A stretch of 64,000 nucleotides of DNA, taken from Candidatus Saccharimonadia bacterium (lineage in GTDB: Bacteria; Patescibacteriota; Saccharimonadia; UBA4664). Location: NCBI GenBank assembly GCA_038244585.1, contig JBBRTI010000002.1, forward strand, positions 258 through 64,257. The letters are read 5' to 3'. The position numbers were made by a program, and so were the translations under genes. Each line of letters begins with the position of its first letter. Positions within the stretch are counted from its first letter, which is position 1. Shown here one piece after another: positions 5,142 through 26,611 of the stretch. The notes below the pieces were generated by a model. The model had not been told where the DNA came from. It did not search any database and saw nothing but the letters and a program-made list of their open reading frames with translations.

Positions 5142-5219
5142 CGTACCGATTCTTTACATCCCCAGCGCGCAGGCAGACACTAAAGCCATAGTTATATCAA
5201 ATTGAATAAGGATCATCCT

Positions 5220-6011
5220 ATGGAACCGAATCCGCCCTCAGTAAGCTCAGCCGGCAAATCCAAATTGACTCTTAGTCTAGACCTGCGCTGGGTAGCTCTG
5301 GCGCTCGTGGCGGTTATCGTCGCCATGCTGCTGGTGTGGCAGCCGTGGAGCCAGGTCGACAGTGTAAATGCACGGACCGTTACCGTCACGGGTGACACCA
5401 CTGTCAAAGCTGTGCCCGACGAATACGTCTTTAGTCTGTCATATCAGAACACGAACGCCGACAAAGCAGTGGCTATTCAGAAGGCTGGTGCTACGAGCGC
5501 GGAGATCATAGCCAAGCTCAAAGCTCTCGGGGTCACCGATAAGCAGATCAAGACTAGAGTAGACGGCTACGGCAACGCCCAACCAGATTATATGGGCATC
5601 GGCCGTCCCGTGCCTGTGCCTTCAGACGGCGGGTATGTCTATACCCTGCAGCTCACCGTGACCTTGACCGATCGGGCGAAGACCCAGCAAGTCCAGGATT
5701 ACCTGGTTACAACCAACCCGACCGGAACGGTCACCCCGATGCCGACCTTTAGCGACGGACTCCGCAAACAGCTTGAATCCAAAGCCCGTGACGCGGCCAC
5801 CCGCGAAGCCCGTACTAAGGCCGACCAATCCGCCCGCAATCTCGGCTTCAAAGTCGGCAGCGTCAAAAGTGTCGATGACGGCGGCGGAATCCGGCCGATG
5901 ATGGGTGGTGTCAGCAGTTCCGAGGCGAAAGACAGCGCCCCCAGCTTCAGCGTCCAGCCCGGTGAGAACGATCTCAATTACTCCGTAACCGTCACTTACT
6001 ACATAAAGTAG
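5220..6011 (+). CDS. SIMPL-domain (DUF541 / BP26-like) protein with an N-terminal signal anchor
   Basis: ATG at 5220 follows AAGGA. A TM anchor is followed by TVTVTGDTTVKAVPDEYVFSLSY... and a C-terminal ...QPGENDLNYSVTVTYYIK, a pattern typical of SIMPL proteins. Confidence 0.55.
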   Translation: MEPNPPSVSSAGKSKLTLSLDLRWVALALVAVIVAMLLVWQPWSQVDSVNARTVTVTGDTTVKAVPDEYVFSLSYQNTNADKAVAIQKAGATSAEIIAKLKALGVTDKQIKTRVDGYGNAQPDYMGIGRPVPVPSDGGYVYTLQLTVTLTDRAKTQQVQDYLVTTNPTGTVTPMPTFSDGLRKQLESKARDAATREARTKADQSARNLGFKVGSVKSVDDGGGIRPMMGGVSSSEAKDSAPSFSVQPGENDLNYSVTVTYYIK

Positions 6012-6339: not shown

Positions 6340-8235
6340 CTACAATTTGCTATAGCGAAGCATCAGCGAACTCGTCACCACCGAGACTGAGCTAAACGCC
6401 ATGGCTAGACCGGCAATGGCTGGGTTGAGAGTGAGGCCGAGCGGTACGAGCATGCCGGCTGCCACCGGTATGCCGGCCAGGTTGTAGACGAAGGCCCAAA
6501 ATAGGTTGAGGCGGATCCGGCCGAACGTCTTGTGGCTGAGCGTTAGGGCCCGGGAGACGTCGCGCAGGTCGTTTTTAACGAGGACGATGCCGCCCGCTTC
6601 CATGGCGATGTCCGTACCGGATCCCATGGCGATGCCCAGATCGGCTTGGGCCAGGGCCGGCGCATCGTTGATGCCGTCGCCGACGAAGGCGACCTTGCCG
6701 CGCTGCTGCAGCGTTTTAACGTGGTCGGCCTTGTCGCCGGGCAGCACTTCGGCAATGACGTTGGTGATACCTACCGCGCGAGCGATTGCCGCCGCTGTGG
6801 CTTTGTTGTCACCGGTGAGCATCACCGGTTCAAAGCCGCGCGCAGTCAGGTCTGCGACCGCTTCCGCCGCCATGGGCTTGGGTTCGTCCTGGACGGCAAT
6901 TAGCCCGATGAGCGAGCCGGCTTCTACTATCATCATGACGGTCTTACCTTGGCTTTCCAGTCTGGCCATCTCTTCGCCGAAAGCCGTAGCCGATAGCTGG
7001 AGGCCTTCCATCAAGGCGCGATTACCGACGGCCACGGGCTTTCCGGCCAGCTTGCCGGTTACGCCTTTGCCCTCGACAGCCTGGAAGTCTGAGGTTTTAG
7101 CGACCTCGATGCCTTCGGCTTTGGCTCGGTCAAGAATAGCCGACGCCAACGGATGTTCCGAGACGGCTTCGAGGGCAGCGGCCGTGCGTAATACCTCGGC
7201 TTCGTCGCCGACTATATCCGTCACCACCGGCCGTCCGACCGTCAGCGTTCCCGTCTTGTCGAAGACGATGTATTTGATATTATTAGCCGCTTCCAAGACT
7301 TCGCCGCTCTTGATGAGGATACCCAGACTGGCTCCTCGGCCGGTCCCGACCATCAGCGCCGTAGGCGTTGCCAGCCCCAAGGCGCACGGGCAGGCAATTA
7401 CTACCACTGCCACCGCGAACAACATCGACGCTACGAAACTGGATCCCAGCAGCACGAACCAGACGTTGAATACCAAAATCGCGAGTATTAGCACCACGGG
7501 CACGAACACGCCCGAGACCTTATCGGCTAGCTTTTGGATTGGTGCGCGGCTGTTTTGGGCCCGCCTTACCAGTTCCACGATTTGAGCGAGCAACGTTTCG
7601 GAGCCCACCTTGGTGGCCTCGAACGTAAACGATCCGGTTTTGTTAATTGTCGAGCCGATGACGATATCGCCGACGCCCTTAACCACCGGTAAACTTTCGC
7701 CCGTCACCATAGCTTCGTCGATGGTTGAACTGCCTTGCGTTATCTTGCCGTCGACAGCAATCTTCTCTCCTGGCCTTACTAGGACCAGGTCACCGACACG
7801 CACCTCGTCAAGCGGGACCGAGACTTCTTTGCCGTCGCGCAAGATCGTCGCTTGCTTGGCCTGCAGCCCTACCAGTTTCTCAATGGCGTTGGACGCCCGG
7901 TTGCGAGTGAGATCCTCGAATAGCTTGCCGAGCAGGATGAAGGTAATCAGCAGCGCAGCGATCTCAAAATAGACCTCCGTGCCCGCGCTCAAAGCGTACA
8001 GACTGTAGAAGTACGCCACACCGGTACCCAGGGCAACCAGCGTATCCATGCTAGCCTGACGGTGCTTGAAGGCCGACCACGCGCCTACGAAAAACGGGTA
8101 GCCGCCGAATACCATCACCGGCGTCGCCAAAGCCCACATGGTGAGCTTGTCACCGGGCAGCATCAGCCCCACCATAGTGAGGGCCAGTGGCAGAGAGAAA
8201 ACCAAGCTGATTATAAAACGAGTTTTCGTACTCAT
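6340..8235 (-). CDS. copA: copper-translocating P1B-type ATPase (CPC motif) that lacks an N-terminal metal-binding domain
   Basis: Motifs [15 protein letters not shown] (CPC), DKTGTLT, SEHPLA (HP) and [10 protein letters not shown] are all present. The protein starts directly with TM helices. Confidence 0.9.
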
Positions 8236-8603
8236 TTTACGACCACCTGGCCACTGAACATCTGCATTCCGCAGGTGTATTTATACTCGCCGGCCGTTTG
8301 CGGCCCGATCTCAATCATGGTTTTTTCGCCCAGCGGTAACGCCCTGGACACGCCGAAATCCGGGAGGAGGACTTCTTCGAGGCAGCCCGACGGGTCCTTT
8401 CGGTTAAAGATAAGCCTGGCCGGCACGCCGGCCGCCAGTTGGACGACCCTAGGCTGGTACCCGCCGTCAACCAATATCTCAACGGTTTGTACGCCCTCGG
8501 CCATTTCGGCCACCTGGGCCTCATCCTGGTGCTTACCGAAAAACCACCACACTATAAACCCGATAGCTAACGCTGATGTGACTAGCGAAACAATTTTGTC
8601 CAT
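8232..8603 (-). CDS. membrane-anchored cupredoxin-like domain protein
   Basis: An N-terminal TM helix is followed by a beta-rich domain ending in ...[18 protein letters not shown], which resembles the Cupredoxin_1 family that often neighbours Cu-ATPases. AAGGAG RBS is present. It overlaps the copA start and the HMA gene end. Confidence 0.45.
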
Positions 8604-8848
8604 TTGGAGTGCTCCTTTTTATTATTATCCGCGCTTGCGACAGGTATGGCTACATACCCCATAGCGGCAACGGCTGCCACTATACCGTCAGGGGATTGGT
8701 CGGTTTCCTCATATTCAACCCGCATCGTGTGCCGCTTATAGTCGGCCTCCACCTTTTTGACGCCGGCAAGATCATCTTCCATGGCTTCGAGGTGCATGAT
8801 GCACGACGGGCAGCTGAGGTTTTCCAGTCTAAACGATTGGCTTGTCAT
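8582..8848 (-). CDS. copZ: CopZ-like heavy-metal-associated (HMA) domain protein with a CxxC motif
   Basis: LSCPSCIMHLEA...GVKKVEADY...GYVA follows the HMA ferredoxin-like fold pattern. CPSC is the metal-binding pair. Confidence 0.6.
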   Translation of the reverse strand: MTSQSFRLENLSCPSCIMHLEAMEDDLAGVKKVEADYKRHTMRVEYEETDQSPDGIVAAVAAMGYVAIPVASADNNKKEHSKWTKLFR

Positions 8849-8859
8849 CTTAGAACTCC

Positions 8860-9882
8860 TTATTTTACGACGATTAGCGCTGAATACATGCCCATGACAC
8901 AGGTCAGGCGGATAGTGCCCGCAACCTGAGGTGGCAGCAGAATGATTTGCGAGTCAGTCTCGCCCAGCAGTTTTTGAATATTTAGCGACGGAATGACAAG
9001 TGACCGGCCGCACCCTTGGGTATTATTGGTTGTCACTGTGAGCTTAATCGGGACGCCCGCCTTGGCTTCCATGACGGCCGGAGCGTAGGCTTGGTCGGTA
9101 ATCGTCATACTCAGTGCATTGTCGGTCGTTGCTACGACCGCAGGAACATCCGGTTGGATTTGCTTTAATGACTGGGTCACAGCGGCGTAGGATATTGGTG
9201 AACCGGCTAGCGTCAGCCCGCTGTCAACCGCTATCACTCCCAGGACTAAGACTGCCACCCCGGCCGTCTTCCAGAACCGTGACTGCCAGCGATTACCCAG
9301 TTTGGTTGTTAGGTAGGCTAGCGAAAAGAACAGAGGCGTAGTTCCCAGAACAAAGGCAAACAAAATTGCAGCACCCGTTACCGGGCTGCCACTGCCTACT
9401 GCCAGTGCCATCATGGCCTGGGTCACGCCGCACGGTATGAGCACGGTTAACGCGCCCAGGAAGGTGGGTGCTAGCCAATTGGCGTCGGCTTGTTTTGATT
9501 TACGCCGGATGTAACGCGTCGCAAACTTGGGCGGCGTTATGGCAAAGTGACGGAATATGGGATGGACGTTTAACAGACGGAATGCCGTGCCCACCATGAA
9601 CAGCCCGATTGCAATCTGGAGAATCGCCCGCATCAGTGGGGTCAGCTGTAGAAGCTGACCAAGCCATCCTAGAGCGGCCCCCAGTAAGGTATAGGACACC
9701 AGTTTGGCGCCCAAAAACAGTAGTATCGGCTGCGCGGACTGCCGGCGGGAGCGGACCGCTGCACCAGCGTCAGTTTCGGCAGGATCAGCCAATGCACTGG
9801 CCAGCATGCCGCCCTGAACCGCTAAACAGCTGAGACCGCCTGCCGTCAGCCCGGTCACGAATACGATTAATAAATTCGACAC
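8860..9882 (-). CDS. polytopic membrane protein (CcdA/DsbD-like TM domain with conserved Cys) fused to a C-terminal cupredoxin-like domain
   Basis: TM1 carries GLTAGGLSCLAVQGG and a later helix carries IPCGVTQ. The C-terminus ...GCGRSLVIPSLNIQ...AGTIRLTCVMGMYSALIVVK looks like Cupredoxin_1. Confidence 0.5.
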   Translation of the reverse strand: MSNLLIVFVTGLTAGGLSCLAVQGGMLASALADPAETDAGAAVRSRRQSAQPILLFLGAKLVSYTLLGAALGWLGQLLQLTPLMRAILQIAIGLFMVGTAFRLLNVHPIFRHFAITPPKFATRYIRRKSKQADANWLAPTFLGALTVLIPCGVTQAMMALAVGSGSPVTGAAILFAFVLGTTPLFFSLAYLTTKLGNRWQSRFWKTAGVAVLVLGVIAVDSGLTLAGSPISYAAVTQSLKQIQPDVPAVVATTDNALSMTITDQAYAPAVMEAKAGVPIKLTVTTNNTQGCGRSLVIPSLNIQKLLGETDSQIILLPPQVAGTIRLTCVMGMYSALIVVK

Positions 9883-9924
9883 GTAAATCTCCTCGTTATA
9901 GTACGTTTAGGTACGAACGAGTGG

Positions 9925-10263
9925 TCAATCGAGACGGTGAGAGTACAAGTCGATATAATTTGGCGACGGCCTGGCGTGGGCCGGTAAATAAAGTAGCAAA
10001 AATTGCCCACGCATCGGCAGGGCAATGGCGACAACGGCCATCACTCCCAATAACAAAGATAAGGCAGTAGTCGGCGTAAACGGTGCCGAATAGGGCAAAC
10101 GGCTGGCACCCAAACATAGGGTCAGACAGCTGGCACCGCCTTGATCCATCGTCACGGCGTGGTCTTGGTGTGCGGCCGACATGAGGGGTGCCGCACCAAA
10201 ACCGACGATACTCAACGCAACTGCCATGATTGCCGCTAGAATATATCTCGCTCGGGTATTCAT
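9925..10263 (-). CDS. small membrane protein, first gene of the copper operon
   Basis: Hydrophobic helices plus a His/Met-containing segment (SAAHQDHAVTMDQ). It is the first ORF downstream of the divergent promoter region. Confidence 0.35.
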   Translation of the reverse strand: MNTRARYILAAIMAVALSIVGFGAAPLMSAAHQDHAVTMDQGGASCLTLCLGASRLPYSAPFTPTTALSLLLGVMAVVAIALPMRGQFLLLYLPAHARPSPNYIDLYSHRLD

Positions 10264-10391
10264 GGTTTTATTGTACTGTACTCGTCAATATGAGGGCAAT
10301 TATCGCCGAAATGCAGACGAGCTCTCGGATTCGCCTCATATATATAAATTCAATAATTTGTAATCAAAAGCACTTCCAAACTCAAGTGTTA

Positions 10392-10400
10392 TGTTATAAT
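10392..10400 (+). promoter_or_regulatory. extended -10 element TGtTATAAT upstream of the FNR-like gene
   Basis: TGTTATAAT at 10392-10400 lies 15 nt before the ATG at 10415, inside the 150-nt AT-rich divergent intergenic region. Confidence 0.4.
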
Positions 10401-10414
10401 GTAGGTAAGTTCCC

Positions 10415-11617
10415 ATGTATAAATATATCGTTGAGAATGTAGAGCATATTACCGCCTCTACCTTGCTCCTGAGCTTAAGAAAGCGTGAGGGGGAGGGTCT
10501 CTTTTCGTTTCAAGCGGGGCAGTATGCCGCGATTAGTTTTGCTAATCATCACCGACCGACACCGGCCCGCTGTTTTTCAATAGTCAGCTCCCCGACAGAT
10601 CGGGACATATTGCAGTTCAGCATGCGGGTGAGAGGTCACTTCACTCGGGCGCTATCTGGCATTCAGATTGGTGACACCGTCAATGTTCGAGGGCCGTACG
10701 GTGGGTTTGTCGCCGACTTTGGTTTGGATACGGATGTCGTGATGCTAGCAGGCGGCATTGGCATAACCCCGTTCATAAGTATGGCTCGATATGCCGGCGC
10801 TGTTCAGTCAACCAGCAAGCTTACGCTGATATACAGCTGTGCAAACCAAGATGACATCCCGTTCCTAGAGGAGCTTAAACAGCTTGAGGTACAAAACCCA
10901 AATTTCAGGGTGATATTCGTGATTGGACAGGGACCCATGAACAAGCTGGCCGGTCAAGTGGCTGGTACGGGAAGAATCACCCCTGAAATTCTGGATTATT
11001 TATTCGCCACCAGGTATGCTGCCGCGACCTTTTTTGTCTGCGGCCCGCCACCCTTTATGAACGGCATGGTCAAGACCTTGCACTCAAAAGGCGTTGATAT
11101 GGTGCAGATTGTGACGGAAGCCTTTGCTCAGGGGTCACTTCGACAGTCCAGCTCCTTCCGTAGTTGGCCCCGGAGCGTGTACGTTCTTGGCTCGGCCGGT
11201 TTTGCACTTGGCAGCCTCGCGGTTATGGCCAGTGATCTTATCAAAACATTGCCGCCGTCGACAGATCTCGGTTCATCCAATGTTTCTACTAGAACTACGC
11301 TGACGAACTCGCGTCAAACCGATCTCGATTCACTGGTAAACAAGTTACAGCCGACCGCTAACGGGTCCCCGTCATCGGGCGCAGTCATCGCAGCTCAGCT
11401 CGCAGCCACTCCACCTACTGCCATCGCTGCGGCATCGGCCTCTAACCCGACCGCCAGGGTTGCGGCTGCGACTAATACCAGGACGGCAACCAACGCCGTT
11501 TCAAACACTGCGGCCGCTGGTACTAGTGTGGCCAAGCCCCCGGCTGCCACACCGATACCGGCTCCTCCACCAAAAAAATGTACGACAACCCAGAGCGGGG
11601 TTACGACTTGCATCTGA
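10415..11617 (+). CDS. FNR-like FAD/NAD(P)H oxidoreductase domain protein with a C-terminal TM segment and Ala/Thr/Pro-rich tail
   Basis: RCFS (RxYS-type FAD motif), GGIGITPF (NAD-binding GxGxxP) and a C-terminal FFVCGPPPFM are present. A hydrophobic helix and a low-complexity tail follow. Confidence 0.65.
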   Translation: MYKYIVENVEHITASTLLLSLRKREGEGLFSFQAGQYAAISFANHHRPTPARCFSIVSSPTDRDILQFSMRVRGHFTRALSGIQIGDTVNVRGPYGGFVADFGLDTDVVMLAGGIGITPFISMARYAGAVQSTSKLTLIYSCANQDDIPFLEELKQLEVQNPNFRVIFVIGQGPMNKLAGQVAGTGRITPEILDYLFATRYAAATFFVCGPPPFMNGMVKTLHSKGVDMVQIVTEAFAQGSLRQSSSFRSWPRSVYVLGSAGFALGSLAVMASDLIKTLPPSTDLGSSNVSTRTTLTNSRQTDLDSLVNKLQPTANGSPSSGAVIAAQLAATPPTAIAAASASNPTARVAAATNTRTATNAVSNTAAAGTSVAKPPAATPIPAPPPKKCTTTQSGVTTCI

Positions 11618-11637
11618 CGCAGCACGCCCAGACCAAG

Positions 11638-12570
11638 ATGGCCCTTGGCAGCGAGGTTACATTTAGATTGGTGGCAGCCTCATCTCAAGACCTAGACGAC
11701 GTATTCATTTCACTCTGGCAGCTGGTTTATAGCTTCGAACGAAAGTTCAGCCGCTTTCTGCCGGCTAGCGAGTTGTCGGCGTTTAACCGCGGAGCCGGTC
11801 AAAAAAATCCCGTTTCAGCTGAATTTCATACCTTGCTGGCGGTGGCCAAAGCCTTGGGCGAAACAACCGCCGGTTTATATAATCCGTTCATTTTACCCGC
11901 CCTGCAGCGTGCCGGCTATATGAACTCGGCAGCGCCCGGCTACGAAGGCGACGCAGCGATCGACTACTCGCAGCGGGCCGTCGCCCATGTCGATCAGCTT
12001 GTCATCGGCGACACTTGGGCTTCTATTCCGTTCAATACGGCTCTTGATATGGGCGGATGCGGGAAAGGCTATTTGGCCGACCAGCTGCGGGATGAGTTGG
12101 CTTTTCAAGGTCTGACTGGCTACCAGCTGTCATTCGGAGGCGACATCACGACCTACGGCCACGATGAACATGATGAGCCCTGGACCATTTATATCCAGGA
12201 TGCCGACAACCTTTCAGGCCGTCATGCTTTGGCGGTAGTCTGCCCCGTGGAGCCGTTCGCAGTGGCGACCTCTGGTACCTTCAGACGCAGTAACCAACCA
12301 GCAACTAAGGGCTGGCATCACATCATCGACCCCACTACGCTCGAGCCGGCGGTGACCGACGTCCGCCTGGCGACCGTTTGCGCCCCCATGACTTTGAATG
12401 CGGATGTGCTGGCGTCGTGTGCGGCTATCTTGGGTTCGCGGCGGGCGCCTGAGTTCTTGACGGATCGCAGCGCAATGGCTATGTTGCTTCAGTGCCAGGA
12501 CCAGTCCCGGAAGTACGATGCTAAAATTGATCGTTCAACCGATCATATATTATTGAAAACAATTAGCTAG
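11638..12570 (+). CDS. apbE: FAD:protein FMN transferase (ApbE family)
   Basis: FSRFLPASELSAFN, DMGGCGKGYLAD, VATSGTFRR and HHIIDP are all present. The start is uncertain (11578 or 11638) and there is no signal peptide. Confidence 0.75.
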   Translation: MALGSEVTFRLVAASSQDLDDVFISLWQLVYSFERKFSRFLPASELSAFNRGAGQKNPVSAEFHTLLAVAKALGETTAGLYNPFILPALQRAGYMNSAAPGYEGDAAIDYSQRAVAHVDQLVIGDTWASIPFNTALDMGGCGKGYLADQLRDELAFQGLTGYQLSFGGDITTYGHDEHDEPWTIYIQDADNLSGRHALAVVCPVEPFAVATSGTFRRSNQPATKGWHHIIDPTTLEPAVTDVRLATVCAPMTLNADVLASCAAILGSRRAPEFLTDRSAMAMLLQCQDQSRKYDAKIDRSTDHILLKTIS

Positions 12571-12574
12571 GCGG

Positions 12575-13294
12575 TTGTTCATGGGTAAGAATTTTTTGAC
12601 GGCGCTAGTGGTTTATATCGGCCTGTCTCTGGCGGCCCCGTTTGCAACCCAGGTCTATGCGCAGGGCGGATCAGGCGACATTATTGTTCAGACGATACCC
12701 GGACCCACGGTGGCAAGCCAACTGACTCACCGGACGGCATCCTCTTGGTCGTGGTATATTACGCGAGCCTCAGGACTGGTCGCTGCGGTTGCTCTAGTCA
12801 TACTTATGCTCTCGGGCATCGGTCAAGTCACAGGCTATACTTTTAGCTTCCTCGAGCCCTTAACTGCCTGGGCATCACACCGCGCACTGGGGCTGACGTT
12901 CGGCGTGGCCGTTCTGGTGCATATGTTTACGCTCCTCTTTGATCATTTTGTACCGTTTAGTCTTCTGAATATTCTCGTGCCGTGGCTGTCGGATTACAAA
13001 CCTGTAACAATCGCGGGCATCCACCTGGGCTCGCTCTTTGTGGCCCTTGGTGTCCTATCGTTCTATGCGTCCATCATGGTTGTGCTGTCATCGATCTTTT
13101 GGATTGATAAGAAGCCCTACATTTGGAAGATTACCCATTTGTTGTCGTACTTGATTATAATTGCCGTCTTTATCCATGCTTTGTACCTGGGTACGGACCT
13201 GCTGCACGGTTGGGCGCGCTGGCTCTGGGTTGCTTCCGGCAGCGCAGTCGCCGCTGCAACTCTACACCGTATGTGGAGGGCAAAAACGATATGA
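12575..13294 (+). CDS. ferric-reductase-like transmembrane (FRD) domain protein, putative bis-haem b-type cytochrome, with signal peptide
   Basis: The N-terminus has a signal peptide. TM helices carry paired His residues (HRALGLTFGVAVLVH, a H-x13-H pair, and FIHALYLGTDLLHG). Confidence 0.5.
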   Translation: MFMGKNFLTALVVYIGLSLAAPFATQVYAQGGSGDIIVQTIPGPTVASQLTHRTASSWSWYITRASGLVAAVALVILMLSGIGQVTGYTFSFLEPLTAWASHRALGLTFGVAVLVHMFTLLFDHFVPFSLLNILVPWLSDYKPVTIAGIHLGSLFVALGVLSFYASIMVVLSSIFWIDKKPYIWKITHLLSYLIIIAVFIHALYLGTDLLHGWARWLWVASGSAVAAATLHRMWRAKTI

Positions 13295-14208
13295 CTAGGG
13301 TATTGTTGCGAGCACGTCAACGGAGCCATTTTCGGTTGGTGTGGAGTATTACCATTGGTGTGATTCTGGTCCTTGTCACAGCCTGGGTATATAAAGCCGC
13401 GTCCAACGTCAGGACCCATACCTTGCCGGTCGGTGGTATTAAACTGAGCGTCCCATACTCCAAATATCTGGTAAATGAACCGATTACTTTCACGATTACA
13501 AATCTTTACAATAGCCCTATCTACATAGCCAACGCCTGCCCCTCGGAACCGCTGAGCGTCTACCGTCAGGTAAACGGCGTTTGGGTGAGGCTCCATGATA
13601 CCGCCACGGCCAAAGGTTGCAGCAAAGAGGACCGGAGAATTGTTGTGCCTGCAAATGGCTTCGTGAATGGCAATTTTTCCGCGTGGCCTCATTTGTTCAA
13701 CCAGCCCGGGCATTACCGGGTGGTGGCCTACGTTGAATATTATTCGGCTCTGGAATTCCAGGAATTCGATGTCATCGCCGTACCTCCGCCGTTCATTGCG
13801 GCCCTGTCGCCAGCCGCGACAACCGCCGCCGGCCAGACTTCAAATAACCCTGGTGCTTCGTCAGCGACGACGGCAAATCGAAGCACTACCGCAACCGGCA
13901 GTCGCCCGGCTCCAACTTACGCACCTCAGCATTATCAAATTACGGTAGACCGGTACGGCAATTACAATACGACAAACCTTAATTTGCACGTTGGTGATAT
14001 TCTTACTATCGTCTACACGCAACAAGGCCCCGACGAGATTCAGACTAACTTTACGCCTCTTTCCCCCTCAACACCGGGTATAGACAGCGTTACCGTCGAC
14101 CACGAAAATACGTCGAGGTCAATTATTTTGAGGTCAAAGGGCACATGGAGATACTCTGCGGCCCCTGACATCACTACCGGTAATTCGGGAACTCTGAACG
14201 TAAATTAA
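13291..14208 (+). CDS. membrane-anchored Ser/Thr-rich extracytoplasmic protein, function unknown
   Basis: ATG at 13291 overlaps the upstream stop (ATGA). It has an N-terminal TM, a Thr/Ala-rich linker and a beta-rich C-terminal domain. Confidence 0.45.
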   Translation: MTRVLLRARQRSHFRLVWSITIGVILVLVTAWVYKAASNVRTHTLPVGGIKLSVPYSKYLVNEPITFTITNLYNSPIYIANACPSEPLSVYRQVNGVWVRLHDTATAKGCSKEDRRIVVPANGFVNGNFSAWPHLFNQPGHYRVVAYVEYYSALEFQEFDVIAVPPPFIAALSPAATTAAGQTSNNPGASSATTANRSTTATGSRPAPTYAPQHYQITVDRYGNYNTTNLNLHVGDILTIVYTQQGPDEIQTNFTPLSPSTPGIDSVTVDHENTSRSIILRSKGTWRYSAAPDITTGNSGTLNVN

Positions 14209-14487: not shown

Positions 14488-14787
14488 ATGCAGAACAAAT
14501 TATTCGTAGCCGGTCTCGACTTTAACGTCACCGACGAAACCCTTGGCGAGCTTTTTGCCGGCCAGGGAACAGTACAGAGCGCCAAGGTAGTCATGGACCG
14601 CGACACCGGCCGCTCACGCGGTTTCGGCTTCGTCGAGATGGCAACTGAAGCAGAGGCCAACGCCGCTGTCACAGCCCTTAACGGCAAAGACATCAACGGT
14701 CGCAGCCTGGTAGTAAACGTTGCTAAGCCTCAGGCTGGCGGCGGTGGTGGTGGCGGACGTTCGTCCGACCGCGGATCTCGCTACTAA
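14488..14787 (+). CDS. RRM-type RNA-binding protein with a Gly-rich C-terminus
   Basis: RNP-2-like LFVAGL and RNP-1 RGFGFVEM are present. The tail is GGGGGGGRSS. Confidence 0.85.
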   Translation: MQNKLFVAGLDFNVTDETLGELFAGQGTVQSAKVVMDRDTGRSRGFGFVEMATEAEANAAVTALNGKDINGRSLVVNVAKPQAGGGGGGGRSSDRGSRY

Positions 14788-16205: not shown

Positions 16206-16475
16206 GTGAATAACAAATTATTTGTAGCTGGACTTGATTTTGGCATCGATGACGACGCCCTTTTAGATTTGTTTCAAGCCTGCGGTGACGTTTTAACGGC
16301 CCGGGTTGCCGTCGACCGGGATACCTCGCAATCCCGCGGGTTCGGGTTCGTGGAAATGGCCAGCGATGAGGAGGCTGAAGAGGCTATACGTGCGTTAGAC
16401 GGACAGACTCTGGCCGGACGCACCTTAGTGGTGAGTGTCGCAAAATCGTCCGGCGGCCGATCCGGCGGGCGATAA
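16206..16475 (+). CDS. RRM-type RNA-binding protein, paralog of 14488..14787
   Basis: GTG start with an AAGAGGT RBS. LFVAGL and RGFGFVEM are present. It shares about 60% identity with the first RRM protein. Confidence 0.8.
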   Translation: MNNKLFVAGLDFGIDDDALLDLFQACGDVLTARVAVDRDTSQSRGFGFVEMASDEEAEEAIRALDGQTLAGRTLVVSVAKSSGGRSGGR

Positions 16476-16742: not shown

Positions 16743-18185
16743 ATGTTCAGTCCCTTTCAACGGCGTGATGTTGTCGACACAAGACGACAGAACCCGCAGC
16801 AGTATACCCAGCAGCGCCCCACACTAAATGTTTGGACGGTACTCAAACTGGCCGTGTATTCTCTGTGGTGGGTCGTCGGACTTTTCGTGGTTATGTCGGT
16901 GTTGATCAACCACGCTGCAGCACCCCTACAGACCTGGCTGTCGTCTCCAAGCGCGTCAACGCTGAGCGCCCTCAATAATGACGGCGACAGCACTACCTCT
17001 GCCCCGAGCAGTAACGCTGCGGCGGCTACGGCCGCCAAGCTCAGTTCATCGCCGACTGCTGTCGTCAACGATCAATTCCTGATGCAGCAATCCATGGATA
17101 TCAACGAAACGACGATCGCCCTACGGGCGAACCTCAATTCACCGACACCCAACCGGTTGTCTATCCTTGGCTACCCGGCGCTGAACCAAGCGCTCGACGG
17201 GTACCAAAAATCGATAGTGTCATTCAGGGACAACCAACCGTGGCTCTTCTGGCCATTGGCCTTGGTTGTGCTGGCGTTGGTGTTTCTCATTTTACCGGTA
17301 TCGCTGTCAATCCATCGTCAGCATGCCAAGGTCAACGGGCTGCCACCAAAGCATGTCCATCCCGCTACCGCGTTGGCGCTTTTGGCGGTGATTACCCTGA
17401 TGGTGATTACGCCGCTGCAGGCCATGTCGCTTACGCACACCCTGAGCGTTGCAACAGTCAGAAGCGCGTTCTTGGGTAGTTCGTTCAACGACCTCCAGCA
17501 GCGGTCACAGCGTGAGCTGATCGATGCTCCGGCGGCAGAAAGTATTCTCGGTCCTGCCGGGCGTACTGACACAGGTATCACCTATGTCACTGCCGTTCGC
17601 AACGGCGACCCCGTCACAGCCCAACAGGTGAAGGCTTTTGCCCACGAGAAGGCGACGAACCAGACCGCTATCGCGGTACCGGCTTCCTCGCTTATTCACA
17701 CCGAAGTTGTCAATATCCTGGAGCGTGTCACCTTGCTCGCGGCTCAGTTGGTCCAAGCCGTCCTCACTTTGCTGATGAGCCCCCTAGTGGCGCTCATGAT
17801 CATGCTGTTGGCGTTTTGGAGGAAAAACCGTAAATATGCTCTAGGGTATGTGGGGTCGGTCATTGTCCTGTTTATCGCGCTGGGGGTCTTTACTCTCGTC
17901 GGCAGCGGTATCGGTTGGTTTGACCTCTGGTTCAACTCAACCATGGCAGGTAGCGATCTAGGCTTCACGGCCGCCGTATTGACGATGCTCGCGTGGTTTG
18001 CGGCTTTCCACCTCTTGAGATGGATGGCGCTGCAGGCGCACGTGCGTGCCCGTACGGCCGTTCTCGAACGTCGGCAAGCTAAATCTATGGTTGACCATGA
18101 TGCCTCCTCACAGAGGCAGGTATTGGGTAAGTCACAGGTCAAGCGGCTGGCCGGGAGAGCGTCAGCCCGGAAGGGGCCCTCATGA
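16743..18185 (+). CDS. polytopic membrane protein, first gene of the T4SS-like cluster (function unknown)
   Basis: Multiple TM helices and a Ser/Ala-rich extracytoplasmic loop. Its stop overlaps the next gene start. Confidence 0.5.
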   Translation: MFSPFQRRDVVDTRRQNPQQYTQQRPTLNVWTVLKLAVYSLWWVVGLFVVMSVLINHAAAPLQTWLSSPSASTLSALNNDGDSTTSAPSSNAAAATAAKLSSSPTAVVNDQFLMQQSMDINETTIALRANLNSPTPNRLSILGYPALNQALDGYQKSIVSFRDNQPWLFWPLALVVLALVFLILPVSLSIHRQHAKVNGLPPKHVHPATALALLAVITLMVITPLQAMSLTHTLSVATVRSAFLGSSFNDLQQRSQRELIDAPAAESILGPAGRTDTGITYVTAVRNGDPVTAQQVKAFAHEKATNQTAIAVPASSLIHTEVVNILERVTLLAAQLVQAVLTLLMSPLVALMIMLLAFWRKNRKYALGYVGSVIVLFIALGVFTLVGSGIGWFDLWFNSTMAGSDLGFTAAVLTMLAWFAAFHLLRWMALQAHVRARTAVLERRQAKSMVDHDASSQRQVLGKSQVKRLAGRASARKGPS

Positions 18186-18937
18186 CGACACTTACGGATC
18201 AACGTAGTGCAGTCCAGGAGGCATCGGTTGCTCCCGGCGGGTCGTCATTCGTGACGGTCCTGCTGGGAGTGATCGTCATGATCCCAGTCCTGTTCGGATC
18301 GGGTTTCGTCTCGGTCGGAAACATCCAGATAGCCTCCGCTACCGCGGCGGCCAAGGACTTTCTTGCCTTTGCCATCCAGGCCCATGAAGTTGTTCCCGGC
18401 ATCACGACGATTCCGGGTATTGCCAAGGACGGTGCAGCCAAGCCGAAACCGGCAACGGCTGTACCGACCTCCGGCAACTACGGGTGGACTGATGCCGGCT
18501 CAAGCTGGCATTCCAAGCTTCCGTCCGCCGCTGGTCCCTTCATTGGGATTATCGAAGACGCGGCTAAAAGCAAAAACGTCGACCCGCGGCTGGTGGCGGC
18601 CTTGTTTTGGTATGAATCCGGATTTCAACCCAGGATATGCTCAGGCAAGGGTGCGTGCGGCCTCGGCCAGCTGATGCCAGGAACCGCCACTGGGCTAGGC
18701 GTGACTGATCGGAGTGATCCGTATCAGAACGCACAAGCCTCGGCTAGGTACATCAGGATTCAGTTGAACCGTTTCGGCCGCCTAGACTATGCTCTGGCCG
18801 CCTATAACGCGGGTCCCGGAGCCGTGACAAGATACGGTGGTATACCTCCGTATCCAGATACTATCAGGTATGTTCCTGATGTAACGAGAATATTTGTCAA
18901 GCTCGGCGGCAAAGTGTCTAGCGGAGCTAAGCGATGA
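18182..18937 (+). CDS. membrane-anchored lytic transglycosylase (SLT domain), VirB1-like
   Basis: FWYESGF carries the catalytic Glu. GLGQLMPGTATGLGV and ALAAYNAGPGAV are also present. Confidence 0.75.
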   Translation: MTTLTDQRSAVQEASVAPGGSSFVTVLLGVIVMIPVLFGSGFVSVGNIQIASATAAAKDFLAFAIQAHEVVPGITTIPGIAKDGAAKPKPATAVPTSGNYGWTDAGSSWHSKLPSAAGPFIGIIEDAAKSKNVDPRLVAALFWYESGFQPRICSGKGACGLGQLMPGTATGLGVTDRSDPYQNAQASARYIRIQLNRFGRLDYALAAYNAGPGAVTRYGGIPPYPDTIRYVPDVTRIFVKLGGKVSSGAKR

Positions 18938-19740
18938 CTACGGCCACCGAGGTCAAAGCTCCGCCAGAGCCGCTCGTGGGCCAATCGTCGCATCTTGTGA
19001 CCGTTATACTGTGCGGCGTGGTCATGATTCCTTTTGTCCTTGGGCAATCAAGCATATTGCCTCTCGGCTCTATCCAGAACCTGACGCTGAGCTCGCTGGC
19101 GGAAGGACCGCTGGCGGCCCTAATTAAGGCGCAAGCGGAAATTCCGGGAATCGCTCCTAAAAACCCCGTCGCACCCAAAGCTAATGGCCAAGGCGTCAAA
19201 GCCCAGGGTGTGACAGGGGCTAGCCTGATTGCTAATGGCACGGTCAAGACGACGACCGGTGTAGGGTGTAACCCAGCTCCGGATCTGGCATCTAACCAGC
19301 TATATAGCCAGGCAATCGATTGGCTGGTTGAGATGAATCAGGCAGGGTTTACTGTTCGTGTGAGCTGTGTCCGATCGGGGCACAGCCGAAACGTCCATAA
19401 CTCTGACAATATCTCACTCCATACCGTCTGGCGGGCGTTCGACGTTGACCAAGTCAATGGTCAGCCCGTTTGCGCCCGCTACGACAGAAACAGTTGGTGT
19501 TTGGAGGTTCCTACTCCAACGCGTCAGCTGATGACCTGGATCAAAGACAGGCCAAATTCTCAACTGCCGTTCGAAATCGGCGGACCGCACTTCTTTCCGC
19601 CAGGGTCGCGTGGCAAGTCCGCCGGCCCCGGTCGAATTCGCGGTGGTCCCTTCTTTACTAACCATGACCATGAGGATCATCTACATTTCGGCTTTAAGCC
19701 ACGCGATAACCAAGCGCCGGCTGGCGGCTGGATGAGCTGA
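18934..19740 (+). CDS. membrane-anchored peptidase M15-like (LAS metallopeptidase) cell-wall hydrolase
   Basis: SGHSRNVHNSDNISLHTVWRAFDVD contains the SxHxxGxAxD pattern. DHEDHLHF supplies the H-x-H. The N-terminal approximately 60 aa are paralogous to the preceding gene. Confidence 0.55.
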   Translation: MTTATEVKAPPEPLVGQSSHLVTVILCGVVMIPFVLGQSSILPLGSIQNLTLSSLAEGPLAALIKAQAEIPGIAPKNPVAPKANGQGVKAQGVTGASLIANGTVKTTTGVGCNPAPDLASNQLYSQAIDWLVEMNQAGFTVRVSCVRSGHSRNVHNSDNISLHTVWRAFDVDQVNGQPVCARYDRNSWCLEVPTPTRQLMTWIKDRPNSQLPFEIGGPHFFPPGSRGKSAGPGRIRGGPFFTNHDHEDHLHFGFKPRDNQAPAGGWMS

Positions 19741-19756
19741 GTCTCGGTTCTGCTCT

Positions 19757-19792
19757 TGACCCGCCCGGTATATCCGGGCGGGTCATTTTTCT
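19757..19792 (+). terminator. rho-independent terminator (gacccgcccgg-tatat-ccgggcgggtc-attttt)
   Basis: Perfect 11-bp GC stem plus a T-run. Confidence 0.85.
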
Positions 19793-19902
19793 TATATTGC
19801 CTACTTTGCGGAATAATGATGAAGCTATAGCGTACGTTTGTGTTGGTGCACAAATATGGGTTTATACAAATGGCCAAAAGTTATTACTTGAAACGCAAAA
19901 AA

Positions 19903-19931
19903 AATGTGATTCTTGACATACAAGAACAATG
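19903..19931 (+). promoter_or_regulatory. sigma70-type promoter TTGACA-N17-TAAAAT
   Basis: TTGACA at 19903-19908, a 17-nt spacer, TAAAAT at 19926-19931. It lies in an AT-rich intergenic region upstream of the 20108 gene. Confidence 0.5.
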
Positions 19932-20107
19932 ACCCTAAAATAGACAAAACAAACAGAGGTGGAACTTGTAGAAAACTGCCTCTCGGAAATCTGTTTCCGG
20001 AAGACAGGTTTCAGCAAGTTCGTTTCAGTATAGTTGTTGAGGCCATGTACCTTGAATCGTAATACTCATCAATCCCTCTATGACTGAACCCGCGAAAGGG
20101 GACACTC

Positions 20108-22324
20108 ATGTCAGGCAACGACGTTGCGCATCGCAGTGGCAACACAGGAGGTTCCGTGTCCCGCGCGAGCGGATCCGACCCGGCCCATACACCCCGCCAG
20201 GATCTGGCGGATTTTTCGAGTCTCAGGAAGGGCGGCTTCGGTTCGGCACTCATGCGCCTGTTCAAATCTGAGCCGGTACCAACGACCGACACGTCCGCTG
20301 CAAGGCTGGCGCTCAATTTGAACGAACCGCTGAAGGTACTGGTCTTTGGGCTCAACCCCACAGACTGTACCAACACCCTGAGGATCCTCTCTCTGATCAT
20401 GGCGGCCAGACGCCGCACTTTGGTCGTGGCGGCCGACATGAAGGCCAACCGTGGATCACTCGTCTCTTTCTTCCCACAGATGAAAGCTCACAGTTTGAAT
20501 GTTGCGCACCTTGCCGACGGCATCCGCAACAGTCTCGACGGTCCCATAAATCGGGCACTGTCGCTGAGCGAGCTGAGCAGCTACGGAACTGTCCTTCCGA
20601 ATCTTCTGCTTTTGGCAGGAATCGAAAGTGACGACTTTGGCGTTGCTCTGTCTCCTCAGCAGATTGACGACATCATGATGAACTCCGGCCTCATTGCCGA
20701 CCACATCATCGGTGACGGCGGCTCCATCGTGGACTCAACGTTTTTCCAGCTCACTCAGCGTTTCGATCACCTGGTGCTCGCGACAGATCTGTCGGCGCCC
20801 TCCGGCAATGCAACGATTGACACGTTCAAGCGTCTTCACGACGGCTTGAATAACAGGTTGTATGGGCCTCAAGCGTCGACAGTGACTAGGGAAGACGCAG
20901 CGAAAATCGAGCACACCAAGCGGCTCATCCAAGAGGCTCGCCTTGTGACCTACTTCAAGAACAGCGATACGGCTCATCGGCCTGATGATGTCACCAAACT
21001 CCTCGCGACTACCTGGGCAAAGGCCTTCGGCGTGAGTGGTACGGAGGTATACGGAGTCAACGACGACAAGCACTTGGCTGACATACCGCTCGACTTGAGC
21101 AAGGCGCCCGGCGCCATGAATGTTTTTCAAGGTTTGGCAGCCGACCTGGTCTATAGTGCCTTCCTCGAGCAGAACAATGGACTCAGCCCGTTCACCGAGG
21201 CAGTTCCGACATTGTCGGAGCAACCTCATTTTTCGCAGGTTCGCTCGTTGAGAGCTTACACTGTGCAGCCGGACGCGCCTGAGGTCCATGAACCTCTCGA
21301 ACCAAGGCGTTACAACGGCAACCGAATTACCGTCGTAAGGCGGGCGGTGACAGCTACTATCGCCGTTACGGCAACAGGTCTGAGTATAGGTTTGCCTGCT
21401 ACAAACGCCTACGCCGATGGAAACTCTTCATCGACCCCGTCAGTGTCGGAAGGCTCAGACGGAAATGATTCCGCCGGTATGGTCTCCGTCCCTCCGTCGG
21501 AAGCGCCTCAAGCGAAACAGGCAAAAGCGCATGTTCCGTCAAATGACGCCGGTAGTCCATCGCTGTCGGCGTCCGATCAATCGGGCACGGACAGTTCCCA
21601 AGGCAGCGTCCAGCTGCCCGCGGGCGACGCGCCAGGCGCCGCTCCGGCGACGCCGGCTGAGGCAACACGGCACATCGAGTCAAAGGTCAACACGTTGCCA
21701 CCGCAGGATTCCAAACCTGCGGCCGACGTACCTAAGGTCGAAGTGCCCGCATCGTTGCCCCAAGATGTGACGCCTTCGCAAGCTCAAGCCGTCGAGCCGC
21801 CAGCAGTGGCAGCCGCGCCGGTGCCACAGGCCGAATCACATGCTCCCCGGGCGTATGTGCAGACTGTACAGCCTCCGGCCAGCGTCGATCGGCACGCCAA
21901 CATGGTTCGAGAGGTTGAGACGCAGGCGTCCCCCAGAGCGGCAGCTCAAGCTCCGCAACAGGTCACGAATGCAGCAAAGCCGGCTGTTATGCCCGCCGCA
22001 CCGCACGTCAGTACGACGTCGGTGCCAAGCACCAGCACCAGCCACTCGGCTTCCGTTGCCACGACACCTTCGGTTTCCGCTGCTCCTGACTTGTCAGTCA
22101 ACGGCCCGATCGTCGGTACGGTGTTCGTCACCACGGGTGACAGTCTCTGGCTGATTGCCACCAAGGCTTTGCGTACCCATCTGGGCCGCGAGCCGTTGAA
22201 CGGCGAAATTGCTGAGTATTGGCGCATGATTTACGCGGTTGTCGCTAACCATAAGGTTATCGGCAGCGACCCCGACCTGATTCGACCAGGTCAGGAGCTC
22301 GTTCTCCCGCAATTCGGTCGTTAA
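20108..22324 (+). CDS. bitopic protein with a cytoplasmic degenerate ParA/MinD-like domain (no Walker A lysine), TM, Pro/Ala/Ser-rich linker and C-terminal LysM domain
   Basis: LKVLVFGLNPTDCTN...TLVVAADM...DHLVLATDL resembles a deviant SIMIBI fold lacking a GKT P-loop. The hydrophobic helix is VTATIAVTATGLSIGL. The C-terminal GDSLWLIATK...IRPGQELVLPQ is LysM-like. Confidence 0.5.
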   Translation: MSGNDVAHRSGNTGGSVSRASGSDPAHTPRQDLADFSSLRKGGFGSALMRLFKSEPVPTTDTSAARLALNLNEPLKVLVFGLNPTDCTNTLRILSLIMAARRRTLVVAADMKANRGSLVSFFPQMKAHSLNVAHLADGIRNSLDGPINRALSLSELSSYGTVLPNLLLLAGIESDDFGVALSPQQIDDIMMNSGLIADHIIGDGGSIVDSTFFQLTQRFDHLVLATDLSAPSGNATIDTFKRLHDGLNNRLYGPQASTVTREDAAKIEHTKRLIQEARLVTYFKNSDTAHRPDDVTKLLATTWAKAFGVSGTEVYGVNDDKHLADIPLDLSKAPGAMNVFQGLAADLVYSAFLEQNNGLSPFTEAVPTLSEQPHFSQVRSLRAYTVQPDAPEVHEPLEPRRYNGNRITVVRRAVTATIAVTATGLSIGLPATNAYADGNSSSTPSVSEGSDGNDSAGMVSVPPSEAPQAKQAKAHVPSNDAGSPSLSASDQSGTDSSQGSVQLPAGDAPGAAPATPAEATRHIESKVNTLPPQDSKPAADVPKVEVPASLPQDVTPSQAQAVEPPAVAAAPVPQAESHAPRAYVQTVQPPASVDRHANMVREVETQASPRAAAQAPQQVTNAAKPAVMPAAPHVSTTSVPSTSTSHSASVATTPSVSAAPDLSVNGPIVGTVFVTTGDSLWLIATKALRTHLGREPLNGEIAEYWRMIYAVVANHKVIGSDPDLIRPGQELVLPQFGR

Positions 22325-22327
22325 GAC

Positions 22328-22369
22328 CGTACGTATTCACCCCGGGGCCGTGACGGCCCTGGGGTGAAT
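22328..22369. repeat. long near-perfect hairpin (17-bp stem, gtattcaccccggggcc / ggccctggggtgaatac)
   Basis: The inverted repeat lies directly after the stop at 22324. There is one G-U position and no U-tract. Confidence 0.6.
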
Positions 22370-26609: not shown

Positions 26610-26611
26610 TC

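Follow-up and report, generated by a model that had tools for sequence, protein, structure and literature searches.

The stretch of DNA considered here, called the window, comprises 64,000 nucleotides (nt) of contig JBBRTI010000002.1 from a Candidatus Saccharimonadia bacterium (assembly GCA_038244585.1). At positions 10415-14208 it carries four overlapping or abutting + strand genes, which encode an FNR-like dehydrogenase (ORF1; ORF, open reading frame), an ApbE-family enzyme (ORF2), a cytochrome with a ferric-reductase-type domain (FRD; ORF3) and a membrane-anchored exoprotein (ORF4). These four genes form one operon, hereafter the module. A previous sequence-only reading of this DNA had proposed a split NOX/ferric-reductase system of three genes with its own flavin transferase, followed by a fourth ORF. 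All four genes were found at the places it gave. The nearest homologues of the module belong to metagenome-assembled genomes of Candidatus Saccharibacteria. Its features are as follows (aa, amino acids; TM, transmembrane).

10415..11617, + strand: ORF1, dehydrogenase of 400 aa (Pfam FAD_binding_6 and NAD_binding_1)
11174..11242, + strand: TM anchor of the dehydrogenase, about aa 254-276 (conservation in 63 orthologues)
11243..11578, + strand: disordered Thr/Ala/Pro-rich tail of the dehydrogenase, predicted extracytoplasmic (orthologue alignments)
11579..11614, + strand: C-terminal tail motif C389-T-T-T-Q-S394-G-V-T-T-C399-I (motif statistics over 85 tails)
11578..12570, + strand: ORF2, ApbE-family FAD:protein FMN transferase, no signal peptide or lipobox (PF02424)
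12575..13294, + strand: ORF3, cytochrome b subunit of the FRD type, predicted to hold two haems, with five TM helices after a signal peptide or TM0 (525 homologues, invariant His)
12680..12709, + strand: FRD N-terminal motif I-I-V-Q-T-I-P-G-P-T45, predicted to face the outside (column counts in 185 homologues)
13291..14208, + strand: ORF4, membrane-anchored exoprotein of 305 aa (AlphaFold2 and Foldseek)

Conservation of the four-gene locus

The genes of the module are tightly packed. ORF1 and ORF2 overlap by 40 nt, and an alternative in-frame ApbE start, TTG at 11608, would give the 10-nt overlap that is common in orthologues. ORF3 begins 4 nt beyond the ApbE stop; the NCBI call is a 237 aa protein starting at ATG 12581. 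The true start of ORF4 is 13291 rather than TTG 13123, its ATG overlapping the stop of ORF3 as ATGA; the resulting 305 aa protein is identical to one called by NCBI. ORF3 and ORF4 are each 100% identical to proteins called on one 65-kb NCBI contig.

A synteny scan using one genome per species retrieved 73 loci. The order FNR-ApbE-FRD-ORF4 is kept in about 60 of them, on every contig of sufficient length, and neighbouring genes mostly overlap by 1, 4, 10 or 40 nt. Loci reached through two individual homologues show the same gene order. This arrangement lies far beyond chance, order and strand being kept in essentially every Saccharibacteria locus on a long enough contig. Thus, synteny of ApbE with the reductase genes, which the sequence-only reading had made a test of its proposal, is found in about 60 loci. 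In some genomes the module is present twice on one contig, with a few kb between the copies (L029 and L038 on JBDTSH010000016.1; L037 and L057 on JBBRZI010000001.1; L numbers designate loci).

The dehydrogenase and the cytochrome

ORF1 matches FAD_binding_6 (aa 5-98, E 9e-9) and NAD_binding_1 (aa 110-218, E 1e-15). It contains the motifs of an FNR-like dehydrogenase (R-x-[YF]-S, G-x-x-[ST], GGxGxxP and CGP), and R52-C-F-S55, G74-H-F-T77, G113-G-I-G-I-T-P119 and C209-G-P211 are conserved in its orthologues. The solved relatives of this domain include cytochrome b5 reductase (2eix, E 9e-17, the best match), BenC and flavohaemoglobin reductase domains; the dehydrogenase domain of the NOX of Streptococcus pneumoniae (SpNOX) is matched with an E value of 5e-12. 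A conserved juxtamembrane segment follows, with an R-Q-[T/S] motif whose T/S245, 94% conserved, lies 8 residues past the C-terminal aromatic residue of the FNR domain. Then come a small-residue-rich hydrophobic helix (about aa 254-276), around which W251-P252, Y256 and D274 are invariant in 63 orthologues, and a low-complexity Thr/Ala/Pro tail of ~125 residues ending in KKCTTTQSGVTTCI. A helix, N298-x-R-Q-x-x-L-D-x-L-V-N, is conserved inside this otherwise disordered tail. The Pfam matches and the hydrophobic helix bear out the proposed FAD/NAD(P)H domain with a C-terminal membrane anchor and a Thr/Ala-rich tail. Cytochrome b5 reductase is likewise a membrane-anchored member of the FNR family, and it hands on electrons from NAD(P)H one at a time to a protein with b-type haem, as is predicted for ORF1. 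However, its anchor is N-terminal, its acceptor cytochrome b5 lies on the same side of the membrane and it has no extracytoplasmic tail.

The second component is the cytochrome ORF3, for which 525 homologues were found. Taken alone, the window protein has no Pfam match even at E<=10, though 21 of 41 close homologues match PF01794 (best 1.3e-7), as do long-form relatives (8e-9 to 1e-8). Among the profile matches expected by the sequence-only reading, those to FAD_binding_6, NAD_binding_1 and ApbE were thus obtained with the window proteins themselves, whereas the ferric-reductase match was obtained with homologues of ORF3. Four histidines, H102, H116, H188 and H201, are invariant in sets of 41, 44 and 68 sequences. 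Their spacings of 14 and 13 residues are those of His101/115 and His209/222 in NOX2, where two His pairs in two parallel TM helices provide the criterion for an FRD (PMC3591440). A broader profile built from 49 diverse representatives was compared with solved proteins and matched STEAP4 (3.1e-4), SpNOX (4.2e-4), STEAP2 (0.12) and DUOX1 (0.39). In this comparison, both His pairs are aligned to those of SpNOX, and STEAP4 lacks the first His of each pair, as expected for its branch, the H102 column being K/Q. A phmmer search of the PDB, or a profile built from close homologues only, gave nothing significant. An hhalign comparison of the family with NOX2 and E. coli MsrQ was insignificant and is not relied on. 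The AlphaFold2 model of ORF3 (pLDDT 70.6) contains helices at 58-86, 99-122, 152-175, 181-209 and 213-237; Foldseek returned nothing significant for it, the best biologically meaningful match being SpNOX (probability 0.77, E 0.94). The four invariant His, together with the family matches to PF01794, STEAP4 and SpNOX, uphold the earlier assignment of a ferric-reductase-type domain, predicted to bind two haems.

The same histidines help to place ORF3 among known FRD proteins. In YedZ and STEAP, a conserved Arg replaces the first canonical His of TM3, which leaves a single outer haem; the signature of NOX is His-119, with its companion Thr178-Gly179 in TM4 (PMC3591440). By these criteria (Zhang et al. 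2013), ORF3 is not of the YedZ/MsrQ/STEAP type, since H102 is present. It is not of the NOX type either, because the equivalent of His-119, four residues after the second TM3 His, is missing: position 120 is Leu in 39 of 44 sequences; around Thr178-Gly179 the alignment is not reliable. From its sequence, ORF3 is best described as a four-His 'short form' related to the long forms. The annotation 'YedZ / MsrQ haem-binding subunit' carried by ORF3 homologues (P0005, P0010 and others) looks inaccurate and is misleading, as none of the four His is lost in the family and the Arg variant is not seen.

These observations bear on the idea that the module is an MsrQ/YedZ-type donor. Its haem protein would then supply an MsrP-like molybdoenzyme of the periplasm, engaged in the repair of oxidised methionines, and the FNR protein would stand in for E. 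coli Fre. Several homologues are indeed annotated by JGI as 'sulfoxide reductase heme-binding subunit YedZ', and a two-component NOX-like system made of Fre and MsrQ is known (Juillan-Binard 2017, as cited in PMC8238504). In E. coli, as proposed for the module, the FRD cytochrome in the membrane receives its electrons from a flavin reductase of the FNR family that is a distinct protein. However, Fre is soluble and encoded elsewhere, and no MsrP-like gene was found in the operon or in related loci. Moreover, the first canonical His is missing from MsrQ and STEAP, which have a single haem each, accompanied by a flavin in STEAP, whereas the module FRD has four His, with H102 invariant; the likeness to STEAP metalloreductases consists of the profile match to STEAP4. 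An MsrQ-type function therefore appears extremely unlikely.

Gene fusions link the dehydrogenase and the cytochrome more directly. A profile search of 1.84 billion representatives retrieved 1718 FRD relatives, among which FNR-TM-FRD, FRD-FNR, TSP3-FRD-FNR and FRD-FNR-Fer2 fusions occur. The existence of both domain orders supports electron flow from NAD(P)H to FAD, then to two haems and to the outside. In one FNR-TM-FRD fusion (P0221), the two parts show 38% identity to aa 3-303 of the window FNR protein (E 3e-60) and 42% identity to aa 43-239 of the window FRD (E 7e-46). The helix linking FNR to FRD in such fusions is homologous to the FNR anchor ('ALDLIHSVPTT' versus 'ASDLIKTLPPST', P0221).

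The fusions also suggest a topology. Because FNR follows the last FRD helix in NOX-order fusions, the C-terminus of FRD is predicted to be cytoplasmic. With five core helices, this would put the N-terminal segment of FRD outside. In FNR-first fusions, a single TM helix, homologous to the FNR anchor, joins FNR to that outside segment; hence, the FNR domain would be inside and its tail outside. Several independent observations thus point to a cytoplasmic FNR domain and an extracytoplasmic tail.

On this basis, the relay may work as follows. The cytoplasmic FNR-like domain would oxidise NAD(P)H and reduce its own FAD, while the C-terminal TM helix would hold it at the membrane, probably packed on FRD. 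Electrons would then cross two b-type haems, one bound by H102/H188 (inner) and the other by H116/H201 (outer), to reach the outer face of the membrane. There, an extracytoplasmic acceptor would take them up, probably helped by covalent FMN installed by ApbE and by ORF4. The His pairs, the synteny in about 60 loci and the Rosetta-stone fusions all argue for the transmembrane relay by split FNR and bis-haem FRD, with a dedicated ApbE, that the sequence-only reading had suggested, and we consider an FNR to bis-haem FRD relay highly probable. In organisms without a respiratory chain, it could serve as an electron sink or as a reductase at the cell surface, with Fe(III), O2 or some other oxidant from outside as its substrate.

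The nature of the final oxidant has to be considered separately from the relay. By analogy with SpNOX, the module could be an NADPH oxidase that produces reactive oxygen species, O2 being reduced to superoxide at the outer haem, either for NAD(P)+ regeneration or for action on the host. SpNOX (PDB 8qt6, 8qq7), like eukaryotic NOX/FRE enzymes, has the same set of FRD, FAD and NAD(P)H domains and four His with 14/13 spacing. It is the closest solved bis-haem relative of the module FRD, all four His being aligned, and its dehydrogenase domain resembles ORF1. However, NOX enzymes are one polypeptide running from FRD to dehydrogenase, whereas the two parts are encoded by separate genes in the window and their fused relatives occur in both orders. 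Moreover, His-119 is replaced by Leu family-wide, and a dedicated ApbE, a tail and ORF4 would be unnecessary for plain O2 reduction and do not accompany SpNOX-type enzymes. Production of superoxide is thus an unlikely function of the module.

The flavin transferase and its possible targets

ORF2 matches PF02424 (ApbE) with an E value of 4.8e-45 and aligns to the ApbE of Vibrio cholerae (6nxi). The catalytic His is kept (WHHIIDP versus SHIIDP; His equivalent to H257); this is the residue replaced by Gly in the mutant structure 6nxj. In the alignment, the aromatic residue F58 occupies the position of T. pallidum N55 and E. coli Y60, the position that separates pyrophosphatase from transferase; an aromatic residue there is the transferase-type state. 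The Mg-site motifs expected of an ApbE (SG/ADxxxS) are present as well, and F57-S-R-F60, A230-T-S-G233, H247-H248 and A275-D276 are invariant across the ApbEs of the candidate phyla radiation (CPR).

The N-terminus of ORF2 is hydrophilic and the ORF cannot be extended upstream. None of 62 orthologues has a hydrophobic N-terminus, the maximum hydropathy being <=1.74 with its peak in the first beta-strand. The lack of a signal peptide, already remarked for the window protein, is thus a family trait, and ORF2 is predicted to be located in the cytoplasm. In a metagenome scan, every FRD-adjacent ApbE was leaderless, whereas ApbEs not adjacent to FRD mostly have lipoprotein leaders, apart from those of CPR type that lie on short contigs. 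ApbEs that work in the cytosol, on targets located there too, do exist (PMC12052999).

It is likely that ApbE flavinylates a component of the four-gene system. Which component is concerned is less obvious, as the sequence-only reading had recognised: the canonical [S/T]GA[S/T] motif is not conserved in any of the four protein families. That reading had drawn attention to SSGAV in the tail as a partial match; this segment is not conserved (it is VTDAV in L001, for instance) and cannot be retained as a flavinylation site. The four proteins have no Pfam match to FMN-bind, DUF2271 or DUF3570. When every ORF of the window was scanned for D-x-x-[ST]-G-A-[ST] and [ST]GA[ST], one strict match was obtained, D-S-A-T-G-A-S in a GT2 glycosyltransferase (55757-56524), a cytoplasmic protein for which the match is judged to be due to chance. 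Two genes for PMT-family protein O-mannosyltransferases, at 54222-55760 (+ strand) and 56521-58386 (- strand), flank this GT2 gene; O-glycosylation of the module's S/T-rich tail and linkers is therefore conceivable.

Other candidates within the module were also rejected. S-G-V-T, which would be near-canonical with V in place of A, is limited to 24 of 63 tails; in type B it is replaced by S-G-R-C, and type C has no S-G at all. In the cytoplasmic loops of FRD, the conserved S/T at 172/173 and 207 are found in ApbE-less relatives as well and are general FRD features. ORF4 has no conserved S/T motif and no copper ligands, and was retained neither as an ApbE target nor as a cuproprotein. The heptamer A AAA AAA at 11572-11578, in the FNR frame, ends exactly at the ApbE ATG. 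A programmed -1 frameshift there would yield an FNR~TM~tail~ApbE fusion exporting ApbE; however, almost none of 61 orthologous junctions has such a slippery heptamer, and the reading frames are not the same.

Comparison of loci directs attention to the tail. Besides FRD, the TM helix with its tail is the sole constant companion of leaderless ApbEs, and in Parcubacteria and high-GC loci it is also encoded on its own, as a small separate protein. In Parcubacteria, the cluster consists of the small TM+tail protein, in some cases an acidic TSP3 protein, a leaderless ApbE and either FRD or an FRD~FNR fusion, and L083 has an ORF4 homologue. High-GC loci (65-70% GC) contain a TM protein with a Pro/Ala/Thr tail, a leaderless ApbE and a four-His FRD with five TM helices. 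Conversely, ApbE, tail and ORF4 are all missing from the vicinity of three FNR-TM-FRD fusions. The high-GC triad is seen in L106, L123, L129 and L135, which are non-CPR-like and whose tails end in TTTKPSGAP, ATSAPSGG or CTTNASGKCK (each followed by the stop); the tail/ApbE/FRD unit is thus not confined to CPR. In seven Parcubacteria loci (L072-L077 and L082), the cluster directly follows nrdG, the gene of the anaerobic ribonucleotide reductase activase, with nrdD also present in L072. A further protein encoded in these loci is secreted, very acidic and built with bacterial TSP3 (Ca-binding) repeats, which are also found at the N-terminus of FRD.

Three types of tail ends can be distinguished: C-T-T-[ST]-x-S-G-V-T-T-C-x, to which the window belongs, C-Q-T-T-P-S-G-R-C-I, and Cys-less ends (PRTRVS, TSTVS, TTKKS, TTVSTPPP or TKPSGAP, each followed by the stop). 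When the tails were aligned on the serine, [ST]-x-x-S was found in the last 12 residues of 85 of the 85 distinct tails, with T at -3 in 78 of them and C/P at -5. Shuffling the last 40 residues as a null model gave 30 +/- 3.7 tails with the motif (maximum 42). In the window, the core is T391-T-Q-S394, inside C-TTTQSGVTT-C. The DNA shared by the tail end and the ApbE N-terminus varies at third codon positions that are synonymous, which suggests that selection acts on the tail peptide. Moreover, the skeleton [S/T]-x-x-[S/T] has the spacing of the canonical [S/T]-G-A-[S/T]. In mutated flavinylation motifs, changing D to A has a minor effect and changing A to V keeps about 50% of flavinylation (PMC12052999), and ApbE sites on unstructured C-terminal extensions have a precedent (PMC11334425). 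We tentatively propose T391-x-x-S394 as the best candidate for a non-canonical FMN acceptor, the tail end being plausible, rather than probable, as the flavinylated component. In L029, a module copy without ApbE between FNR and FRD nevertheless keeps the tail end CTTSQSGVTTC, consistent with an ApbE acting in trans.

A second, degenerate candidate site lies in the N-terminal segment of FRD, where PGPT45 precedes W60 by 15 residues. In 185 FRD homologues, this column reads PGPT in 71, PGPS in 18, SGPT in 4, PGAT in 1 and SGAT in 1, with G at -2 in 122 and S/T at position 0 in 145; in P0221, PGPT45 is aligned to a canonical Q-S-G-A-T. PGP[T/S] is not found in the FRDs of the high-GC loci or in some of those of Parcubacteria and is thus less widespread than the motif of the tail; flavinylation of the FRD N-terminus seems rather improbable.

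Alternatively, ApbE might not modify the tail at all. It could act on a cytoplasmic site, such as T/S245 in the R-Q-[T/S] motif of the dehydrogenase, or serve the FNR protein through flavin trafficking or FAD processing. The lack of a leader in any orthologue, the known cytosolic ApbEs with cytosolic targets and the conservation and location of T/S245 are all compatible with such a role. On the other hand, ApbE is kept in Parcubacteria loci that have no adjacent FNR and in which the tail protein has 3-8 cytoplasmic residues, whereas the FNR-TM-FRD fusions keep the cytoplasmic features of both FNR and FRD with no ApbE nearby. In addition, the FRD cytoplasmic loops have no conserved S/T specific to loci with ApbE, and F58 argues against an enzyme of the pyrophosphatase type. 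A purely cytoplasmic role is possible, and we consider it somewhat doubtful.

If the tail end is the target, T391...S394 would bear an 'FMN on a tether'. Given an ApbE that lacks any signal for export, we propose that the tail end is modified in the cytoplasm and that the tail is then exported post-translationally. The C-terminus would be the last part of this tail-anchored-like protein to cross the membrane, and the route would need no FAD export. It is conceivable, at a rather low likelihood, that CPR and some high-GC bacteria possess in this way a new class of ApbE substrate, in which T-x-x-S ends a disordered tail, is flavinylated before export and carries a tethered FMN.

Taken as a whole, the module is moderately likely to represent a split NOX/FRE-type transmembrane electron-transfer complex with an FMN helper, in Saccharibacteria and related CPR. 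Several points weigh against this interpretation. For the cytochrome, they are the missing direct Pfam match of the window FRD, the moderate quality of its model and the insignificant Foldseek result. For the flavin, besides the lack of a conserved canonical motif, the middle residues of T-x-x-S are not G-A, an S/T-rich composition favours short motifs by chance, the tails from metagenome loci were hand-picked and two tails of high-GC loci (L108, L112) have another ending. Both candidate sites are predicted to lie outside, whereas the predicted place of ApbE is inside, and we know of no precedent for flavinylation before export. Finally, the genes that flank the module differ among loci, giving no hint of the terminal acceptor.

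The outer face, the neighbourhood and related systems

ORF4 had been described as a Ser/Thr-rich extracytoplasmic protein. It is indeed a membrane-anchored exoprotein, but not simply a Ser/Thr-rich one. Its AlphaFold2 model (pLDDT 84) shows an N-terminal TM helix and two confident beta-sandwich domains of the cupredoxin/Ig-like kind (aa 50-162 and 214-304) separated by a disordered S/T/A linker (aa 176-205). According to the model, both domains have a cupredoxin-like fold: Foldseek relates ORF4 to two-domain laccases (E about 1e-7, probability 1.0), with a TM-score of just 0.25 because the orientation of the domains differs. Pfam gives a weak Big_14 match. G48, N71, C83, P84, W98, C110, F136, G140, Y142 and R143 are invariant; the orthologues have no invariant His or Met and no type-1 or HxH copper ligands, and domain 2, variable or missing among them, has no Cys. 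A profile of domain 1 retrieved CPR relatives only, and the homologue in Parcubacteria L083 is matched by hhalign at 99.3% (E 4e-20). ORF4 could be an outer-face partner of the relay, possibly a flavin docking site. The annotation of two homologues (P0127, P0128) as 'plastocyanin' looks inaccurate, given that copper ligands are missing.

Upstream, the module is separated from a divergent operon by a short region:

10264..10414, strand not assigned: AT-rich divergent intergenic region, with a possible promoter, TGnTATAAT, at 10392-10400 upstream of the operon, picked by eye and not flagged in a consensus scan

This region is shared with a copper operon on the - strand (6340-10263), whose genes encode a CopA P-type ATPase (631 aa, with no match to an HMA domain), a cupredoxin_1 protein, a CopZ-like HMA protein, a DsbD_2~cupredoxin fusion and a small TM protein. 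The sequence-only reading had placed the module next to copper genes. The adjacency is real, on the opposite strand, but it is specific to this window and the functional link it evoked is not borne out: homologues of the five copper-operon proteins are found in the flanks of none of the Saccharibacteria-type loci, and CopA stands beside ApbE in only 1 of 164 loci, the unrelated ApbE locus L134. The module might be an accessory of copper homeostasis, for instance a cupric reductase working with the CopA / CopZ / cupredoxin / DsbD_2 operon, as the common intergenic region and the cupredoxin-like fold of ORF4 would suggest. The isolation of this arrangement and the lack of His/Cys/Met copper ligands in ORF4 make this very unlikely.

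A broader version of this idea, concerning the acceptor and not the relay, is an assimilatory FRE-type ferric (or cupric) reductase that supplies Fe(II) or Cu(I) for uptake, a function already suggested for certain MsrQ-like clusters. The four His, with Leu120 in place of the NOX-specific His, agree with it by the criterion of Zhang 2013. Some MsrQ-like clusters are linked to VIT1 iron transporters (Meheust 2021, PMC8238504), the copper genes adjoin the module in the window, and an Nramp gene lies two genes downstream of it in L004. Against this, no metal-transporter neighbour is conserved, Nramp being found in 1 locus and copper genes in no other Saccharibacteria-type locus, and ORF4 has no conserved metal ligands. 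We regard a metalloreductase as possible, though not as the expected function.

The remaining neighbours are equally sporadic: Nramp, VKOR, SIMPL and RRM genes occur here and there, and no neighbour giving a functional hint is conserved across loci. Two RRM-type RNA-binding genes lie just downstream of the module (14488-14787 and 16206-16475), and RRM genes also flank L018, L031, L047 and L069. A SIMPL/DUF541 gene ('oxidative stress defense protein' family) is located at 5202-6011, 4.4 kb upstream of the module and beyond the copper operon; another directly follows the ORF4-like gene of Parcubacteria L083 (6809-7591). Farther downstream, 16743-31638 contains large genes mostly without a Pfam match, along with an SLT lytic transglycosylase (18182-18937) and an AAA_10 VirB4-like ATPase (24024-26609), and looks like a type IV secretion or conjugation-like block.

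The closest published systems are the MsrQ-like flavinylation clusters, in which a PF01794 two-haem protein is associated with apbE and an NAD-binding domain (PF00175) (Meheust 2021, eLife, PMC8238504; Huang 2024, mSystems, PMC11334425). They share with the module the proposed route from NAD(P)H through a membrane cytochrome to an extracytosolic flavin. In the definition of Meheust 2021, a PF01794 gene lies within five genes of apbE; in the window, as in about 60 loci, FRD and ApbE are encoded side by side. However, the published clusters are mostly actinobacterial, their NAD-binding domain is fused to the C-terminus of the MsrQ-like protein, their substrate is an FMN-bind, DUF2271 or DUF3570 protein with [S/T]GA[S/T] and their ApbE is secreted or lipidated. 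The module instead has a separate dehydrogenase with its own TM anchor and tail, and a leaderless ApbE. Clusters without a signal peptide on ApbE or on the substrate were dropped from the 2021 survey, in which CPR were strikingly under-represented (PMC8238504); the module was thus excluded by design. No paper tying Saccharibacteria or CPR to an ApbE/FRD module was found in the literature searched. The module is therefore a widespread variant of MsrQ-like flavinylation-associated systems, conserved across Saccharibacteria and not previously described in them.

The extracellular electron transfer system of Listeria (FmnB/PplA) is comparable in that an ApbE-family enzyme provides covalent FMN at the surface of a monoderm, with electrons derived from NADH. 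It relies on Ndh2, quinone and EetAB, on an FMN-bind lipoprotein, on an extracellular FmnB and on ECF-supplied FAD, none of which was seen at the module; unlike in Listeria, the conduit would here be a bis-haem FRD.

Saccharibacteria and other CPR are usually described as lacking electron-transport chains. A conserved relay from NAD(P)H through a bis-haem protein to the outside would give them a membrane redox outlet, which might serve to regenerate NAD(P)+, to reduce metals, to deal with O2 or to interact by redox reactions with actinobacterial hosts. If the tail motif is a genuine ApbE site, the recognition rules of ApbE would be wider than assumed, which is relevant to flavin-tag technology, and a new problem would arise, namely how a flavinylated peptide crosses the membrane. 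If, in addition, FMN is tethered as proposed, these supposedly strict fermenters would possess a minimal extracellular electron-transfer chain, needing no quinones, FAD export or folded FMN-binding domain, in which electrons taken up at the outer haem could cross the cell wall and reach acceptors outside the cell or the surface of the host.

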